Assembly (NCBI GenBank): GCA_965612795.1
Contig: CBFDTI010000001.1
Location: forward strand, 1-64,000
Direction of reading: 5' to 3'
Length of the DNA stretch: 64,000 nt
Origin: an uncultured bacterium
GTDB taxonomy: Bacteria; Hydrothermota; UBA3073; NMUJ01
Shown: piece after piece, positions 35,383 through 42,486 of the stretch
Position numbering within the stretch: the stretch's first letter is position 1
Layout: every line of letters begins with the position of its first letter
Notes under the pieces: generated by a model
What the model was told of the DNA's origin: nothing
Databases searched by the model: none
Seen by the model: only the letters and a program-made list of their open reading frames with translations
Position numbers and translations under genes: made by a program

Positions 35383-36514
35383 CCACTTTATCAAAGATTG
35401 ATGCCAACTTACCCACAACATGTGCTGCCTGGAACCCCTCAATCGTACCTCTCCATGGGTAATTATCAGAGTAGAACGCATTGTAATACTTTAGTATCAA
35501 ACGTTTTATCCCATCAATATCGTCTGGATCCACTCCCTCACCCATACCATACTTTTCAACCAACTCACGTGCCCTCACCCCTCTGGGTGCTATCGCTATA
35601 ACTGGATGCGGCATACCCATATACTCGAACAACTTACATGTTATCATAAAGTGTGGCTCATACTTACCCACAAGCAACAGTAGCAACACACTGTTTTCGT
35701 AGAACCCCTTAATCCTATGATATGGCACATACGCGTAGTGTTTAATATACGGTCGTCGAGGCAGCGGTACCTCCAAATGCCCTACAAAGTTAACCTCTAT
35801 TTTATCGCTATCTATTTTACCTTCATCTATCAACTCATCGATCCCTTTAATAAATGTGTAGGGAGGTGCTAATTTACGTATCACCCCCGGATAGAGTATG
35901 GAGAATATCTCCATTTTAGGTACCTCTATAGTCATATCATATGGTGTAGGTATTATCTCAACCTTATCGTATCCATTGACATATTTGCGAAAAGTCTCAT
36001 CCAACACCACAATACGGTCGCTCACCCCATACACCCAGCGTTTAATCCAGTTATTGCTTACCCATGGGTCACGCAAGTCTATCACCAACGGCACCCCTGT
36101 TAACGTTTTCAAGATCGCCCCTATTATGAGGTCAGTCACTGGTGGTGAGGTTGCAAATATCAGCTCTATTCTTTTGCGTTTGATCATATCGTAACCTTTG
36201 TAGATTGCAAACGGTATCCACCCCATCTCCTTTTCTATCCATCGCAATAATTTAGGTCGTGCCTTACCACCGGTAAGTTGCGTAACACCCAAAAGTCTCA
36301 GTATCCGCAGCAGGTCGAGCGACTCAGTAAAACACACATCTTTAACAATGAGCAACGAACCATCATACGCATAGTAAGCACCAGGTTTGGGTGTCAAAAC
36401 AACCGGTTCGTATCCATATTCAGGAAGGTATTTCTCAAACCTCACCACCCTATGTACACCTGATAACCCCAATGGCGGGTGATAGTAAGCGATCAACAAC
36501 ACCCTACGCATCAT
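35372..36514 (-). CDS. glycosyltransferase (GT-B, family 4-like)
   Basis: AYYHPP...GVHR...F.KYL, ATSPP, DLRDPW, KLFEY. Confidence 0.85.
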   Translation of the reverse strand: MMRRVLLIAYYHPPLGLSGVHRVVRFEKYLPEYGYEPVVLTPKPGAYYAYDGSLLIVKDVCFTESLDLLRILRLLGVTQLTGGKARPKLLRWIEKEMGWIPFAIYKGYDMIKRKRIELIFATSPPVTDLIIGAILKTLTGVPLVIDLRDPWVSNNWIKRWVYGVSDRIVVLDETFRKYVNGYDKVEIIPTPYDMTIEVPKMEIFSILYPGVIRKLAPPYTFIKGIDELIDEGKIDSDKIEVNFVGHLEVPLPRRPYIKHYAYVPYHRIKGFYENSVLLLLLVGKYEPHFMITCKLFEYMGMPHPVIAIAPRGVRARELVEKYGMGEGVDPDDIDGIKRLILKYYNAFYSDNYPWRGTIEGFQAAHVVGKLASIFDKVVNR

Positions 36515-38577
36515 TTTGTAACAGCGAGCTTACCCCGTACCCAACGTCCATCAGCCAACTTAACAATAACTTGATAGACTCCCACCGGTATAGCATCCAA
36601 TTCCTTCACATGTATTATGGGGGAATCACCCTGTCCCGCAATAGAATATATTAACCTCCCACTCAACGTGTATAGATACATGGTTTGCCACACATAAGGG
36701 GTGACGATTGTCAACGTACTATGTTTACCCACAACAAAAGGATTAGGATATATTTCAACTTTCGTAATCTCCCAACTTGGTGACAACGTAACCTTTGATA
36801 TACCCCCACGTGTGGGTATCCACATTGAAAACCTCTCATTATCCCATACAATATCACGTGTAAAGTCCACATATTCCGAAGCCACCAACCCATCACCTAT
36901 TGTGTAATTAATGAGTTCACCTGAACTTGGGTTAAGTACACTCACACCCTGCATATTCACCAGCATCCAGATTCTACCTTCCCAATCCTCTTCCAACGCC
37001 AGTATGTCATTGCTTGGCAGGTCACTATTGGTTGAGGTGTACTCACCGATCACCTTACCATCTCTTATCCGGAATACACCCGCACGTGTAGCCACCCATA
37101 TATCACCAGCCCTATCACATATGAGGTCCGTAACCCATGTAGTGGGTAGCAGGTTGCTCAGTATTTCAAACCCTCCATCCTTATGTATACATGCAATACC
37201 ATACATGTGGCTACCTACCCACATATTTCCGTGACGATCCTCGGCAAACGCACCAGGTGTAACAAATTGCCACGTGTTGATAACCGAATCGTCCACAATC
37301 TCAAAGATATATCCACCATTTGTACCTACCCACAGGTGATCGTTTGCATCTACGTACATACCCCAAACTATATTTGAGCCACTACCTGGTAAATGGAACC
37401 TTTTTAAAGAATCACTTTCCGGGATATACTTTGCTAACCCTACATCATCACCCCAAAAGCTTATCCATAGGTTACCCTTACTATCACTCACGATATATCT
37501 TGCACGCTTAATTTCATCTTCCCCAGCAAGATAATGCGCATAATACCATTTACCTTCTACCTCATATATTCGGGTGATGGCAGGCTCCCATGCCGTAAAA
37601 TGTACCGCCCATATGTCACCGTTGGGGCTCAACGCTATACTGCTTGTGATATTGCTTACCATCGATGTAGGAAAACTATCCTTCAACAACGTATCCGTTG
37701 TCCAAGCTACCAACCCACATTTGAAACTACCCACCCATACTACACTATCTAAAATCACTAAATGGCCTTGCCCCCTTGGTGCATAAAGTAACGGCGTAAG
37801 TGATGGCCACCATGTACCGTTCCACTTTTTAACACCCCACCTCGTAGAAGCCAACAGCAAAGTATCACCCTTACAGAAATCGAACACCTCCGGATACGCA
37901 TTCACAAGTTGCGAACTTCCCCTTACATACATCACTATCCCAGAGTCTGTACCCACCCATAAAGTGTCATTACACCACTCCAATGCCGTAATCCTAGCTT
38001 CCCTAACTTCAACCGGTAGATCCGTCTTTGGTATCACATGCCAGCCGTTACCTTCAACATCCGTTACACCGATACCGTCTTCTGTACAGAACCACAACGA
38101 ATCGTTATGATAATAAACACGCAATACTTTATTATCCAACGGTACAGGTAGGTTCCAATAGCTTATTCTCTCAATATCGGATAAGTTAGCAGCAAGTTCC
38201 AATACCGTGACAGGTGCATCATCCTCAGTAGCTATCCATACTCTTCTACCTGCTACTGCCATTGAAGAGAACCTGTCACTTTGTGGTAACCCCTGTGCGT
38301 TCGTGTAACTGTACGATATACCATGCGTGAAGATTACCAACCCCTTACTACGTGTAAGACACCACACCCCAGACGAGTCTACAAATATATCCTGTACGTT
38401 ATTTTCGGTAAGCCCATCCACATTTGTTAAATGTTGTAACTCATCCGTATCAGGGTTATAAATTACCACACCACCCTCGGTTGCTGCATAAATACAAGTT
38501 TCGTAATGAAAAATATCATTCACTTTATAAGTAGAGAGAAAGCTCTCCCATACGATCCCCAATACAAACAATATCAT
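36511..38577 (-). CDS. two-component-regulator-type beta-propeller protein with C-terminal sorting domain (PorZ-like)
   Basis: AATEGG, DGL..N, D..GN.W repeats; C-terminus IYPNPF...YTLSGRLI...GVY.V....GKLAV. Confidence 0.7.
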   Translation of the reverse strand: MILFVLGIVWESFLSTYKVNDIFHYETCIYAATEGGVVIYNPDTDELQHLTNVDGLTENNVQDIFVDSSGVWCLTRSKGLVIFTHGISYSYTNAQGLPQSDRFSSMAVAGRRVWIATEDDAPVTVLELAANLSDIERISYWNLPVPLDNKVLRVYYHNDSLWFCTEDGIGVTDVEGNGWHVIPKTDLPVEVREARITALEWCNDTLWVGTDSGIVMYVRGSSQLVNAYPEVFDFCKGDTLLLASTRWGVKKWNGTWWPSLTPLLYAPRGQGHLVILDSVVWVGSFKCGLVAWTTDTLLKDSFPTSMVSNITSSIALSPNGDIWAVHFTAWEPAITRIYEVEGKWYYAHYLAGEDEIKRARYIVSDSKGNLWISFWGDDVGLAKYIPESDSLKRFHLPGSGSNIVWGMYVDANDHLWVGTNGGYIFEIVDDSVINTWQFVTPGAFAEDRHGNMWVGSHMYGIACIHKDGGFEILSNLLPTTWVTDLICDRAGDIWVATRAGVFRIRDGKVIGEYTSTNSDLPSNDILALEEDWEGRIWMLVNMQGVSVLNPSSGELINYTIGDGLVASEYVDFTRDIVWDNERFSMWIPTRGGISKVTLSPSWEITKVEIYPNPFVVGKHSTLTIVTPYVWQTMYLYTLSGRLIYSIAGQGDSPIIHVKELDAIPVGVYQVIVKLADGRWVRGKLAVTK

Positions 38578-38966
38578 TTACCCAGCTTATTACGTATGAA
38601 TTCTATCACCTGCTCTTTGTTGCCCCTAAACCTCACGTACATACCACGAAAGTTTTCCAACCTGTTGGGTTTATCAAACGGGCTAAGCAATACACCATAT
38701 TTATCGACATAGTAGCTTTTGATCGACTCCCAGCGCCTGAATTGTGTCACAAAGAACCCCTTTTTATAGACACCCCTGTCGTTCATTACATAGGTGGTTG
38801 GCAAAAAATACGACAATATATTTACAACAAGCAAAAACGTACCAAATAATGTCCACCACACTCCCCACGTATAGTAAAGACCAATCGCCAAAAACACAAT
38901 AAAAGCTATCAAATACGCTGTTTTACGTGGCTCCTCTTTAGCGGGTAACGACCGCCATTCTATCAT
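38574..38966 (-). CDS. hypothetical membrane protein
   Basis: two TM helices then FLPT.Y...GVLLSPF..P.RLENFRG; ATGA-coupled on both sides. Confidence 0.75.
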   Translation of the reverse strand: MIEWRSLPAKEEPRKTAYLIAFIVFLAIGLYYTWGVWWTLFGTFLLVVNILSYFLPTTYVMNDRGVYKKGFFVTQFRRWESIKSYYVDKYGVLLSPFDKPNRLENFRGMYVRFRGNKEQVIEFIRNKLGK

Positions 38967-40069
38967 AACTTAAGTTTATCAAACTCAGGTTTCAACATCT
39001 CATAGATTTTATCGAGTGCTGCTGATATCACCTTTGTATCACCAATTACTGGCATAAAGTTGGTATCCCCCAACCACCTTGGTACAATATGTACATGTAT
39101 ATGGTCGACCACACCCGCACCCGCCACTTTACCCACATTTATACCGATGTTGAACCCATGGGGATGCATCACCTTACGCAATATCTCCACAGAGGCTTGT
39201 ACTAAACGCCCAACCTCCACAAGCTCTTCCGGAGTCAACTCTGTCAGTTCACCAGTGTGACGTGTGGGTGCTACCATCAAATGTCCGTTATTATAAGGGA
39301 AGATATTCATGACAACAAAAGCCCGTTCACTACGATACAATACATAGCTCTTGGCCATATTTTTGAGCGCATCACAAAATATGCATCCCCCCTTGCGTGG
39401 CCCCGTTATGTACTCTATACGCCAAGGTGCCCACAACCTATGCGGTACTGTTGTCAACAGCTTTTCAGTTGTCTTAAAATGTAACTTCGCAACCTTACCT
39501 AATGCGTGTTCACCTTTTGTTAAGACAAATTCCTTACCTATCAGCTCCACTTCTGTAGACGCGCCCTTGGGTAACACCATACCTTCGCTCTCCGATAATT
39601 TATTTAATTGCTCCAAAAATGTAGCACGTGCCAAAAGTGACGCCAGCATCACCGCAAGATCCTCCTCCCCATGTGGATGTATCACCAACGGTACTCCTTT
39701 CGGGAAATACGATTTTATAAAATCCGGATCCGCAAACTGATCTATCACTATACGGTCGCAACTACCCACACTGTTAAGTAGCTTCATCACAACCCTACTA
39801 TGTAGCCATGCCAAGATATGGTTGAGGTTAGGTGTCCTACTATAGAGCTTATTGTATTCTGTAGGCGCCAGATAGCATATCTCATGTACACACAATTTTT
39901 TAATTTCCTGGCTCAGATATATAGCTTGTGCATCGGTTACCTTTTTGCTCTCCCTTATTGGTAGTTTCTTCAGTTCTGGTAGCTTCTCGTCATCCAAAAA
40001 TACTGCCGCAACTGCCAATCCACCAAAATAATCCCCCTTACCAGCTTCGTCACTACCTATCCATCTCAT
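38963..40069 (-). CDS. rnhC: fusion of ribonuclease HIII and HIT-family nucleotide hydrolase
   Basis: IGSDEAGKGDYFG, DQF, LPKGAS, AKLHFKT; then LWAPWR, CIFC, PYNNGH, HIHVHIVPRW.GDTNFM. Confidence 0.88.
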   Translation of the reverse strand: MRWIGSDEAGKGDYFGGLAVAAVFLDDEKLPELKKLPIRESKKVTDAQAIYLSQEIKKLCVHEICYLAPTEYNKLYSRTPNLNHILAWLHSRVVMKLLNSVGSCDRIVIDQFADPDFIKSYFPKGVPLVIHPHGEEDLAVMLASLLARATFLEQLNKLSESEGMVLPKGASTEVELIGKEFVLTKGEHALGKVAKLHFKTTEKLLTTVPHRLWAPWRIEYITGPRKGGCIFCDALKNMAKSYVLYRSERAFVVMNIFPYNNGHLMVAPTRHTGELTELTPEELVEVGRLVQASVEILRKVMHPHGFNIGINVGKVAGAGVVDHIHVHIVPRWLGDTNFMPVIGDTKVISAALDKIYEMLKPEFDKLKL

Positions 40070-42486
40070 TTTGTAACTATATTGATGAGCTTTTTAGGTA
40101 CCACGATGATACGTTTCACCTGCTTACCCATAATATGTTGCCGTATTTTGGGATGTTCCAGTGCCATCTTACGTATATCGTCTTCTGTCACATCAAACGG
40201 TACCTGCAGACGTACCCTAAGCTTACCATCAACCTGCACCGGTATCTCAATCTCCGGTAGGTATACTTTCCCTGGATCATACTGAGGCCAACTTGCGTGG
40301 AAAATAGATCCCTCACCTCCGATCCTATGCCATAATTCTTCCGCTAGATATGGTGCAAATGGTGCAATCAGCTTCACTAACGTATAAAGCCCATAACCGA
40401 GCGTCTCGTCCTTTCCAGACTTGTAGAATTCATTGACAAGCTCCATCAACGCCGCTATCGCAGTATTATAGTGGAAATCTTCAATATCCTCCGTAACCTT
40501 CTTGATCGTGTAGTTAATCCTACGCAATAATATACTGTCATTAGCCGGTACATTCTCCGTGATTATATCGGTGTTCTCCGTCACAATCCTATAGACTCGA
40601 TCAAGGAACCGCCGTGCACCTTCAACTACACGTTCGCTCCATATACCTTCTTTTTCCGGTGGCCCCAGAAACAGCACCCCCACACGTGCAACGTCTGCAC
40701 CTACCCGCTGCACGAGAGGTCTCACCGGTACAGCTGTACCCCTTGAAGATGACATCACCTTTCCGTCTTCGTTCAATATCATACCCTGTGTGAACAACCG
40801 TAATGCCGGTTCATTCACCGGCGATATACCTGCATCGTATAACACTTTCGTGATAAATCTGAAGTATATCAGGTGACCGGTTGCATGCTCGATACCACCA
40901 ATATATTGATCGATAGGCATCCATCTCTTCGCTATCTTAGGGTCAAATATTTCGTTATCGTTATGTGGGTCGGTGTATCGCAGTTGATACCAAGATGAAT
41001 CCACGAACGTATCCATAGTATCAGGGTCACGCTTTGCATCCCCTCCACACCGTGGACACTTTGTATTTATAAATTCAGGTACCGACTCAAGTGGCGATTT
41101 ACCTTTAGGAGCGTAATCCACCACTTCAGGTAATTTCACCGGTAACTCTTCTTCCGGCACAGGTACCACACCACAACGTGGACAATGTATCATAGGGATT
41201 GGTGCACCCCAATAACGTTGCCGTGATACAAGCCAATCCCTAAGATGGAATTGCACCTCTCTACCACCCAATCCCATGGCCTTGAGCTCATCCGCCACTG
41301 CTGAAATCCCCTCTTCAGAGGTAAGTCCCGTAAATTTACCAGATTCTATCATCACCCCGTACTCTTCATAAGCTTTATCGAGCGGTTCGCTTAATTCACT
41401 ATCCACGGGTTTAATTACTACCTTTATCGGTAAGCCATACTTTTTAGCAAACTCAAAATCACGCTGATCGTGTGCAGGTACACCCATTACGATACCTGTC
41501 CCATATGTAGCAAGTACATAATCACACACATAGATCGGAATACGTTCACCCGTAAAGGGATGCACCGCATATAGGCCTGTGAATACCCCAGTCTTTTCGC
41601 GTTCACGTGATGTACGCTCTATCTCCGAAATCCTAAGCGACCTCTCGATATATTGGTGAACCTCCTCACTTAAGGGTAAGCCTTCCAATATCTCATGTTC
41701 TGGTGCTATCGCAATAAATGTCACCCCAAATACAGTATCAGCACGTGTTGTAAACACTGGTAACTGCTTATCGAACTCTGGTAGCTTAAACACGATACGT
41801 ACACCCTCGCTCTTGCCGATCCAATTTCGTTGCAGGTTTATCACCTCATCAGGCCATTTACCTTCGAGATATTTCAGATCATCCAGTAACCTCTCCGCAT
41901 ATGCAGTAATTTTGAAGAACCATTGGGTTAACTTACGTTTAATTACAAGGCTGCTACAACGCCAACATTTGCCATCACTCACTTGTTCGTTAGCTAACAC
42001 TGTCTGACAGTTTGGGCACCAGTTCACATATGCAGGTTTACGGTAGGCCAGCCCTCTCTTGTAAAGTAGAAGGAATATCCATTGCGTCCATTTGTAGTAC
42101 TCCGGTTCGCACGTCAGTATCTCACGTGTCCAATCATAACTTATACCCATGAGTCGGTAGCTTTCACGTGATATCTCGATATTCTTCATTGTCCAATCTC
42201 TTGGGTGTATACCATGCCGTATTGCTGCATTCTCTGCGGGTAGGCCAAACGCATCCCAGCCCACCGGATGCAACACCTGATACCCCTGCATCATTTTGTA
42301 CCGGGTTAATACATCACCCAACACATAGTTACGTAGATGCCCTATGTGTAAGTCACCTGATGGATACGCGAACATCTCCAGTACGTAGAATTTTCTGGCC
42401 GGATCCGGTCTATCCGTAGTTCTATAAATACCCTGGGTCTCCCACCACTTACGCCATCTATCCTCTATTTCATGAATCGGGTACAT
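40066..42486 (-). CDS. leuS: leucine--tRNA ligase
   Basis: EMFAYPSG.LHIGH, GWDAFGLPAENAAI, editing-domain TTR/GVPAHDQRD, SRQRYWG; KMSKS motif reads VMSSS. Confidence 0.97.
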   Translation of the reverse strand: MYPIHEIEDRWRKWWETQGIYRTTDRPDPARKFYVLEMFAYPSGDLHIGHLRNYVLGDVLTRYKMMQGYQVLHPVGWDAFGLPAENAAIRHGIHPRDWTMKNIEISRESYRLMGISYDWTREILTCEPEYYKWTQWIFLLLYKRGLAYRKPAYVNWCPNCQTVLANEQVSDGKCWRCSSLVIKRKLTQWFFKITAYAERLLDDLKYLEGKWPDEVINLQRNWIGKSEGVRIVFKLPEFDKQLPVFTTRADTVFGVTFIAIAPEHEILEGLPLSEEVHQYIERSLRISEIERTSREREKTGVFTGLYAVHPFTGERIPIYVCDYVLATYGTGIVMGVPAHDQRDFEFAKKYGLPIKVVIKPVDSELSEPLDKAYEEYGVMIESGKFTGLTSEEGISAVADELKAMGLGGREVQFHLRDWLVSRQRYWGAPIPMIHCPRCGVVPVPEEELPVKLPEVVDYAPKGKSPLESVPEFINTKCPRCGGDAKRDPDTMDTFVDSSWYQLRYTDPHNDNEIFDPKIAKRWMPIDQYIGGIEHATGHLIYFRFITKVLYDAGISPVNEPALRLFTQGMILNEDGKVMSSSRGTAVPVRPLVQRVGADVARVGVLFLGPPEKEGIWSERVVEGARRFLDRVYRIVTENTDIITENVPANDSILLRRINYTIKKVTEDIEDFHYNTAIAALMELVNEFYKSGKDETLGYGLYTLVKLIAPFAPYLAEELWHRIGGEGSIFHASWPQYDPGKVYLPEIEIPVQVDGKLRVRLQVPFDVTEDDIRKMALEHPKIRQHIMGKQVKRIIVVPKKLINIVTK

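Follow-up and report, generated by a model that had tools for sequence, protein, structure and literature searches.

An RNase HIII catalytic core without its TBP-like domain is joined to an Rv2613c-type HIT domain in one class of the candidate phylum WOR-3

Ribonuclease HIII (RNase HIII) acts in the removal of primers and R-loops and, as a class, deals with stretches of RNA, not with single ribonucleotides that are embedded (PMC9719913; papers are cited here for excerpts of their text). The enzyme is described as derived from RNase HII by the acquisition of a TBP-like domain (PMC3597702). This N-terminal substrate-binding domain is treated as a hallmark of RNase HIII (PMC9719913, PMC3597702) and takes part in substrate binding of the canonical enzyme (PMC9719913). 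Among enzymes with a HIT domain, the mycobacterial members related to Rv2613c (MtApa) turn over dinucleoside polyphosphates through a histidine-nucleoside monophosphate (His-NMP) intermediate (PMC7705103). A literature search found no paper mentioning RNase HIII together with a HIT domain. Here we describe a gene that carries both, located in a 64,000-nucleotide (nt) stretch of contig CBFDTI010000001.1 (hereafter the window) from an uncultured hot-vent bacterium of the candidate phylum WOR-3. The domain architecture is real and conserved and the pairing is modestly surprising, while a functional link between the two halves is unproven.

The gene is one uninterrupted open reading frame (ORF), and a Pfam scan places RNase_HII (PF01351, residues 4-201, E 9.4e-30) and HIT (PF01230, residues 239-331, E 2.6e-17) in its single chain of 368 amino acids (aa), which agrees with the in-frame fusion to HIT that a first-pass annotation, made from the sequence alone, had described; the HIT domain is complete. 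The first half belongs to RNase HIII rather than RNase HII, as the NCBIfam model rnhC (TIGR00716) gives 175.6 bits against a cut-off of 161.2, and the best RNase HII model 48.9 bits. However, the TIGR00716 alignment covers only profile positions 84-284 of 284, the first 83, which correspond to the N-domain, being absent, and DUF3378 (PF11858), the N-domain of RNase HIII, has no match in the fusion protein (Pfam, E<=0.1). The scans thus bear out the earlier description of the first half as the catalytic core of an RNase HIII that lacks its TBP-like domain. Since the full stop-to-stop frame is just 376 aa, with at most eight further codons possible upstream, an N-terminal domain of about 85 aa cannot be hidden there.

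When the predicted structure of the fusion was searched with Foldseek, the top four matches were RNase HIII structures: 3ASM (E 3.2e-19), 2D0A, 4PY5 and 3VN5. The catalytic domain is the same as in these enzymes of Geobacillus stearothermophilus (Bst; 2D0A/3ASM), Thermovibrio ammonificans (4PY5) and Aquifex aeolicus (3VN5), at 31% identity, Foldseek E values from 3e-19 to 1e-13 and root-mean-square deviations of 2.1-2.9 Å, and residues 94-303 of Bst RNase HIII (2d0a/3asm) align with the core. D97, E98, D202 and E232 of the Bst enzyme, which we take to be its catalytic residues, correspond to D7, E8, D110 and E135 of the fusion. Such a DEDE set, with Glu as fourth residue where RNase HII has Asp, is the signature of RNase HIII, and G(R/K)G is its substrate-recognition motif (PMC9719913). 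In the alignment of the fusion proteins (A1), the four acidic residues and the GKG motif (G10-K11-G12, residues 10-12) are invariant in 21 of 21 sequences. By rnhC score, DEDE tetrad and GKG motif the core is thus an RNase HIII, but unlike the described enzymes it is without the N-terminal TBP-like domain of about 80 aa and carries a C-terminal HIT enzyme instead.

The second half opens with an invariant WAPWR motif (residues 213-217) and a CxxC pair (C229/C232). HIHVHIV at residues 323-329 is an HφHφHφφ motif, which places it in the HIT superfamily; the same motif is noted for the mycobacterial enzyme (PMC7705103). Besides HIT, Pfam gives DcpS_C (E 1.8e-9) and a weak CwfJ_C_1 on this half. 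H323, H325, H327, C229 and C232 are invariant in all 21 fusion proteins, and the histidine triad is conserved at 90% or more in 55 stand-alone HIT homologues. Indeed, all 35 residues conserved at this level in the 55 stand-alone proteins, which come from many phyla, are likewise at least 90% conserved in the fusions, and the sole systematic difference between the two groups is one position, S349 in the fusions versus P. As the family-wide residues of the stand-alone proteins are kept, there is no sign that the fusion has altered the function of the HIT domain. Its identity to the stand-alone HIT proteins of a sister family (f4), 54-60%, is close to that with other fused copies, 53-62%.

The best solved relatives of the HIT half are the Ap4A (diadenosine tetraphosphate) phosphorylases of Mycobacterium avium (6af2, E 1.8e-35) and M. 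tuberculosis (3ano, E 1.1e-32). In the Foldseek search, the RNase HIII structures are followed by the Ap4A phosphorylases 3WO5/3ANO (Rv2613c) and 6AF2 (M. avium), whose Foldseek alignments show 36-44% identity to residues 210-365 of the fusion. Altogether, Ap4A phosphorylases, Hint-like proteins and FHIT lead the structural and PDB matches of this half, which bears out a caveat of the first-pass annotation, that the HIT domain looks like the Ap4A-phosphorylase type, as a likeness to Ap4A hydrolases and phosphorylases. Rv2613c and the fusion have in common an N-terminal WxPxR segment and a C-terminal PRWxGDxNF segment; unlike Rv2613c, the HIT domain of the fusion has the CxxC pair, which the mycobacterial proteins do not have, and is joined to a nuclease. 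The NCBIfam model for the actinobacterial ATP adenylyltransferase (NF052622, EC 2.7.7.53) aligns with residues 210-362 over profile positions 13-173 of 176, at 142.2 bits against a cut-off of 290. Judged by this profile, the HIT half is homologous to the NF052622 proteins but no equivalog. Asn139, Gly146 and Ser147 of Rv2613c were reportedly found to be important in a structure paper of 2011. In the sequence alignment, N139 corresponds to N311 and is kept, whereas A318 and G319 stand at G146 and S147; all three fusion residues are invariant in the fusions and in the 55 stand-alone HIT proteins.

Between the halves lies a linker whose length in the relatives ranges from a few residues, as in the window protein, to about 100 (P0018, P0019). 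An AlphaFold (AF2) model based on the 21-row alignment has a mean pLDDT (predicted local distance difference test) of 80.9 and a pTM (predicted template modelling score) of 0.58; pLDDT is mostly above 90 in the RNase core and below 50 at residues 209-239 and in two loops of the HIT half. Each domain is thus modelled with confidence, but their placement relative to one another is not. Given the variable linkers, the pTM and the low pLDDT at residues 209-239, the halves look structurally independent.

We considered whether the ORF is an artefact in which a faulty assembly, a sequencing error or a wrongly called frame has merged two neighbouring genes. For this speak a relative, G022 (L070/L054), in which the two halves lie in different frames, and a break of the public-run contigs of run X1 at 39494-39501. 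However, the X1 break lies about 50 nt within the RNase half, off the junction, and is bridged by short contigs. The junction itself is spanned without gaps by a 937-nt contig of run X2 (38923-39859) and by a contig of 2761 nt that comes from another study's RNA library (X18; 38500-40500, 172 substitutions); as its source may have been DNA, we do not take it to prove transcription. Run X1 adds an 11-kb contig over 38500-39494, and no indels were listed in any of the public-run contigs aligned to 38500-40500. Moreover, the same uninterrupted frame occurs in three genomes of the genus and in 20 protein clusters from four data sources. The probability of an artefact is therefore practically nil, and the fusion is a genuine single gene. 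With respect to Met codons the first-pass annotation was loosely worded: internal Met residues occur at positions 95, 141, 164, 238 and 254, among others, whereas the region about the junction, residues 165-237, has none. As a side observation, the X1 contigs end on either side of 39494-39501, several short variant contigs overlap that point, and substitutions are dense at 39495-39551. These variants and substitutions indicate that strains of the organism live side by side in the X1 sample.

The architecture is not confined to the window. PF01351 and PF01230 occur in one chain in 20 further protein clusters (P0002-P0021; 45-93% identity; four data sources), and the closest records, at 94% and 93% identity, are from metagenome-assembled genomes (MAGs) named candidate division WOR-3. 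In a survey of 201 genomes of the phylum (136 match rows lie outside the matches listed), 193 had a match, nearly always a stand-alone HIT gene of about 160-180 aa. Both halves share one frame in 12 of the 22 genomes of the window's class, or 13 with the frameshifted G022 counted for its fused layout, and these 13 fall in five of the seven families of the class. The other nine genomes of the class have separate RNase HIII and HIT genes, on different contigs in the eight genomes of family f4 and 4.3 kb apart on one strand in G001 of family f2. The first-pass annotation had named a singleton or a read error among the things that would refute its interpretation; here the outcome is mixed, with no error at the junction in the reads and fused layouts in 13 of 22, but separate genes in 9 of 22. 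Outside the class (179 genomes), none of the matches listed spanned both halves. The long HIT frames of G058, G041 and G167 (469, 332 and 302 aa) were rejected as fusions, as they are long only from stop to stop, with the start just before WAPWR. Among 63 HIT loci in the genome_contigs set, six are fused, all from the window's class as traced through their G-handle counterparts, and the flanks (up to 6 kb on each side) of the 57 stand-alone HIT loci, which belong to other lineages, gave no RNase HIII by tblastn in any case.

Two of the fused-layout copies look damaged. Two frameshifts divide the HIT half of the G022 copy (L070 = G022:C144, 2811-3995) between two frames, and the G090 copy (L077 = G090:C43, 1678-2754) is missing the first 39 or so RNase residues and with them the Asp-Glu pair. 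Either the MAGs are in error here or the genes are decaying.

A maximum-likelihood tree was built from 63 RNase domains, for which 14 of 29 short, 16 of 101 canonical and 5 of 34 long RNase HIII forms were drawn at random; rows were thinned before the trees, three in four of the short forms from the protein-cluster search being dropped. In this tree, 22 of 26 fused copies fall together with the frameshifted one (SH-aLRT 87), and the window's own genus stands on a long branch outside this group. Constraining all 27 RNase domains to one clade costs 1.04 log-likelihood units (p-AU, approximately unbiased test, 0.49). On these grounds the phylogeny is compatible with one fusion event, which is not rejected and not proven.

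The genome from which the window derives is 1.42 Mb in size and 99.5% complete. It has only two PF01351 loci, the fusion and an RNase HII on contig 6, so that there is no second RNase HIII, and no RNase HI, ApaH, YqeK or DUF3378 was found anywhere in it. Scores and frame lengths set the three remaining PF01230 loci apart from the Rv2613c type. The fused gene is therefore the sole RNase HI/HIII-type enzyme found in the genome and the only recognisable member of the three Ap4A-degrading families searched. As in known RNase HIII hosts, an HIII-type enzyme stands beside RNase HII here, while RNase HI is absent; HII plus HIII is the usual combination (PMC9719913). Because RNase HII is present whereas RNase HI, a second RNase HIII, ApaH and YqeK are not, the gene complement indicates that the fusion probably fills both housekeeping roles.

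Taking these data together, we think it somewhat probable that the gene encodes two housekeeping enzymes on one chain, a lineage-specific bifunctional enzyme. It would have been made by a single gene fusion in the ancestor of one WOR-3 class. [quoted passage not shown] The C-terminal half would be an Rv2613c-type nucleotidyl-transfer enzyme turning over dinucleoside polyphosphates such as Ap4A, in which H325 would attack the α-phosphate to give a covalent NMP-enzyme, to be resolved by phosphate or water. Each half would keep its ancestral job, with no direct hand-over of substrate expected between them, and the fusion would chiefly fix co-expression and stoichiometry. HIT enzymes are obligate dimers or tetramers, so the fusion should also hold at least two RNase cores together on a flexible tether.

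Several observations weigh against this interpretation. The fusion has been retained over five families diverged to about 50% identity, which pure co-expression would not require, and this suggests that the linkage itself may be selected. The same HIT clade is also joined to a CYTH triphosphate-tunnel domain and to the endoribonuclease YbeY, a pattern that hints at 5' ends of RNA or polyphosphate as substrates. With 142 bits the HIT half falls well short of the Ap4A-phosphorylase cut-off of 290, and Ala318/Gly319 replace G146/S147 of Rv2613c, which are reportedly important there; with two of three such residues different and the score below the cut-off, Ap4A is only a putative substrate. Finally, the two copies that look damaged (G022, G090) make up 2 of the 13 fused layouts.

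The retention and the partner domains would fit a model in which the halves cooperate, the HIT domain freeing a nucleotidyl-blocked 5' end of the RNA in a hybrid and RNase HIII cutting the same RNA. The blocking group would be either AMP that an abortive ligation has left where RNA meets DNA, as for aprataxin, or an Np4 or cofactor cap carried by a primer or by an R-loop transcript. Ends of this kind are substrates of HIT enzymes from several branches, and the DcpS_C model matches the fusion as well. Aprataxin (APTX/Hnt3) is a HIT deadenylase of abortive-ligation and RNase H2-generated RNA-DNA junctions. It acts on A5'pp5'DNA (PMC4499129), primase can start primers with NADH or FAD, which affects primer processing in vitro (PMC7367122), and Ap4A-primed synthesis is raised as an open question in a review (PMC7705103). 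The fusion would share the covalent His-AMP chemistry with aprataxin, and conceptually a type 2 RNase H is again paired with a HIT enzyme. Unlike aprataxin, in which a C-terminal zinc finger beside the HIT domain binds the DNA end, it has no zinc finger, its partner nuclease is RNase HIII, and the RNase HII of the genome is a separate gene. Pfam finds no zinc finger or other nucleic-acid-binding module after the HIT domain, the protein ending about 40 residues past the triad, and no aprataxin chain was found among 41 PDB sequence matches or in the Foldseek rows listed to rank 50. The active-site residues are identical to those of the stand-alone homologues, the nearest solved relatives are Ap4A phosphorylases of free nucleotides, and some members have long disordered linkers. 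RNase HIII is not near HIT in any of the 57 other loci, separate genes suffice in nine of the 22 class genomes, and there are no repair genes nearby. We therefore regard coupled 5'-end processing, with either blocking group, as doubtful. The aprataxin-like nick-and-deadenylate coupling suggested in the first-pass annotation in particular gained no support from the domain scan, the aprataxin searches, the comparison with the 55 stand-alone HIT proteins or the neighbouring genes, although it is not refuted and HIT chemistry would allow it.

A broader form of this idea would read the fusion as a Rosetta stone for the Rv2613c-type HIT family, which is widespread but obscure in function and whose physiological substrates would be nucleotidyl-blocked RNA 5' ends rather than free Ap4A; here the HIT domain would unblock RNA that is cut by the attached RNase HIII, and the CYTH-HIT and YbeY-HIT proteins would be variations on that theme. 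We consider this unlikely. The partner proteins in question are 10 clusters with the same HIT clade behind a CYTH domain among 120 listed (P0029, 342 aa, checked), and P0090 (308 aa, 26 member sequences) with it behind YbeY. HIT is always the C-terminal partner in the RNase HIII, CYTH and YbeY fusions. P0048, a possible CorA+HIT protein, was not counted as an architecture, as just 42 residues of CorA were matched.

It could also be that the HIT domain replaces the lost N-terminal substrate-binding domain, by gripping the hybrid or by multivalency, and that its catalysis is secondary. The absence of the TBP-like domain from the fused protein would agree with this, as would the oligomerisation of HIT proteins; 6af2 has four chains and 3ano two. 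However, the histidine triad and all family-wide residues are invariant, which indicates selection on HIT catalysis, and stand-alone RNase HIII without the N-domain (204-237 aa in f4 and f2; 11 of the best 150 relatives elsewhere) needs no substitute. A role of HIT as a stand-in for the lost domain is very unlikely, and two housekeeping enzymes on one chain remain our preferred reading.

When 1.84 billion representatives were searched with the RNase half, 2782 relatives were obtained. Most of the best 150 are canonical, about 285-330 aa long with the N-domain present (DUF3378 where scanned; the domain scan covered 42 of them), 11 are short proteins of 198-239 aa without it, and a single representative, P0003, carries a fused HIT domain. 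In the window's class, RNase HIII is always of the short form, with frames of 204-237 aa. Stand-alone short RNase HIII of about 200-240 aa, such as P0124, P0130, P0140 and P0150 and those of the class genomes G001, G015, G028, G055, G060, G080, G085 and G095, is named "ribonuclease HIII" by the NCBI and JGI pipelines. In Nitrospirota, WOR-3 and others, these proteins have the same bare core as the fusion at 36-50% identity, but no HIT domain. Some of these genes lie on contigs of more than 100 kb and are therefore not truncated gene calls. Since the stand-alone short form occurs in f4, f2 and 11 of the 150 best representatives, the bare core appears from these sequences to be a normal, self-sufficient variant of RNase HIII. 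A FastTree analysis of 197 RNase rows left 90 of 192 branches unresolved and gave its only RNase HII outgroup a branch length of 3.66, so no call was made on whether the short form is ancestral or derived. No experimental study of it was found in the literature, where no search was aimed solely at the short form.

Many others of the best 150, within the set P0127-P0271, are long proteins that end in the RNase HIII core, preceded by Lon_C/ChlI protease-like, RnlA-toxin-like, protein-kinase, caspase or TPR regions; in many of them 200-400 residues at the N-terminus carry no annotation. They resemble effector modules of putative, possibly defence, systems.

Within the window, the fusion is the second of four consecutive genes on the minus strand (36511..42486): leuS, the fusion, a small membrane protein of 130 aa and a beta-propeller protein of 688 aa. 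The ATG of the fusion overlaps the leuS stop by 4 nt (ATGA, 40066..40069), its TGA overlaps the ATG of the 130-aa gene by 4 nt (38963-38966), and a further overlap of the ATGA type joins the beta-propeller gene at 38574-38577; the overlaps suggest translational coupling along the four genes. Within about 12 kb of the fusion lie leuS, FMN reductase, panC, folK, a TPR protein, a transporter, pheS/pheT, glycosyltransferases, the beta-propeller protein and others. These are ordinary housekeeping genes, with no DNA-repair genes among them. The coordinates of all features are collected in Table 1.

The 130-aa protein lies downstream, directly or closely, of the Rv2613c-type HIT gene in 12 of the 63 loci, whether HIT is fused or not, and was found near HIT in WOR-3, Stahlbacteria and Cloacimonadota. 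Its C-terminal motif DKxGVxLSPFxKPxRLENFRGxYxRF is highly conserved (alignment A2). It matches no Pfam family, and its Atlas cluster is named "putative PH domain-containing protein". Complex prediction of the HIT half (residues 205-368, A1) with this protein (A2) gave an ipSAE of 0.00 in two runs made without controls, a result that speaks neither way.

Table 1 Positions of the fusion gene, its domains and residues, and the adjoining genes (window coordinates unless a locus is named)
Feature	Position	Strand	Basis or remark
Fusion ORF (P0001)	38963..40069	minus	368 aa, TGA stop included, uninterrupted; architecture kept in P0002-P0021
RNase HIII-type catalytic core, aa 4-201, type 2 RNase H fold	39467..40060	minus	PF01351, TIGR00716, Foldseek
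Catalytic Asp7-Glu8, inside IGSDEAGKGD	40046..40051	minus	Align with D97/E98 of Bst RNase HIII
Catalytic Asp110	39740..39742	minus	Aligns with D202 of Bst RNase HIII; invariant
Catalytic Glu135, fourth of the DEDE set	39665..39667	minus	Aligns with E232 of Bst RNase HIII; invariant
Linker, about aa 202-209	39443..39466	minus	Alignment A1, columns 250-330
Rv2613c-type HIT domain, aa 210-365	38975..39442	minus	PF01230, NF052622, 6af2/3ano, Foldseek 3wo5/3ano/6af2
Histidine triad H323-I-H325-V-H327 (HIHVH)	39089..39103	minus	Read from the sequence
leuS, upstream, 806 aa	40066..42486	minus	Named from reading its translation, no family scan
130-aa membrane protein, downstream	38574..38966	minus	Two predicted transmembrane helices and a conserved C-terminal domain
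130-aa protein at other loci	L018:2043-2429, L020:6489-6872, L030:6480-6869, L038:5234-5623, L039:3821-4210, L065:504-887		

The fusion and its many short stand-alone relatives indicate that an RNase HIII-type DEDE core without the N-domain is common in uncultured lineages, whereas the textbook enzyme is defined by the N-terminal TBP-like domain that these proteins lack. The fusion also physically joins such a core to a HIT family known only as mycobacterial Ap4A phosphorylase. If the halves do not cooperate, this is a tidy case of two unrelated housekeeping enzymes fused in small genomes. If they do, it would be the first functional context tying dinucleoside-polyphosphate or adenylate chemistry to the removal of RNA/DNA hybrids in bacteria, and, should the HIT domain prove to unblock RNA 5' ends, bacteria would have their own counterpart to the RNase H2-aprataxin axis of eukaryotes.

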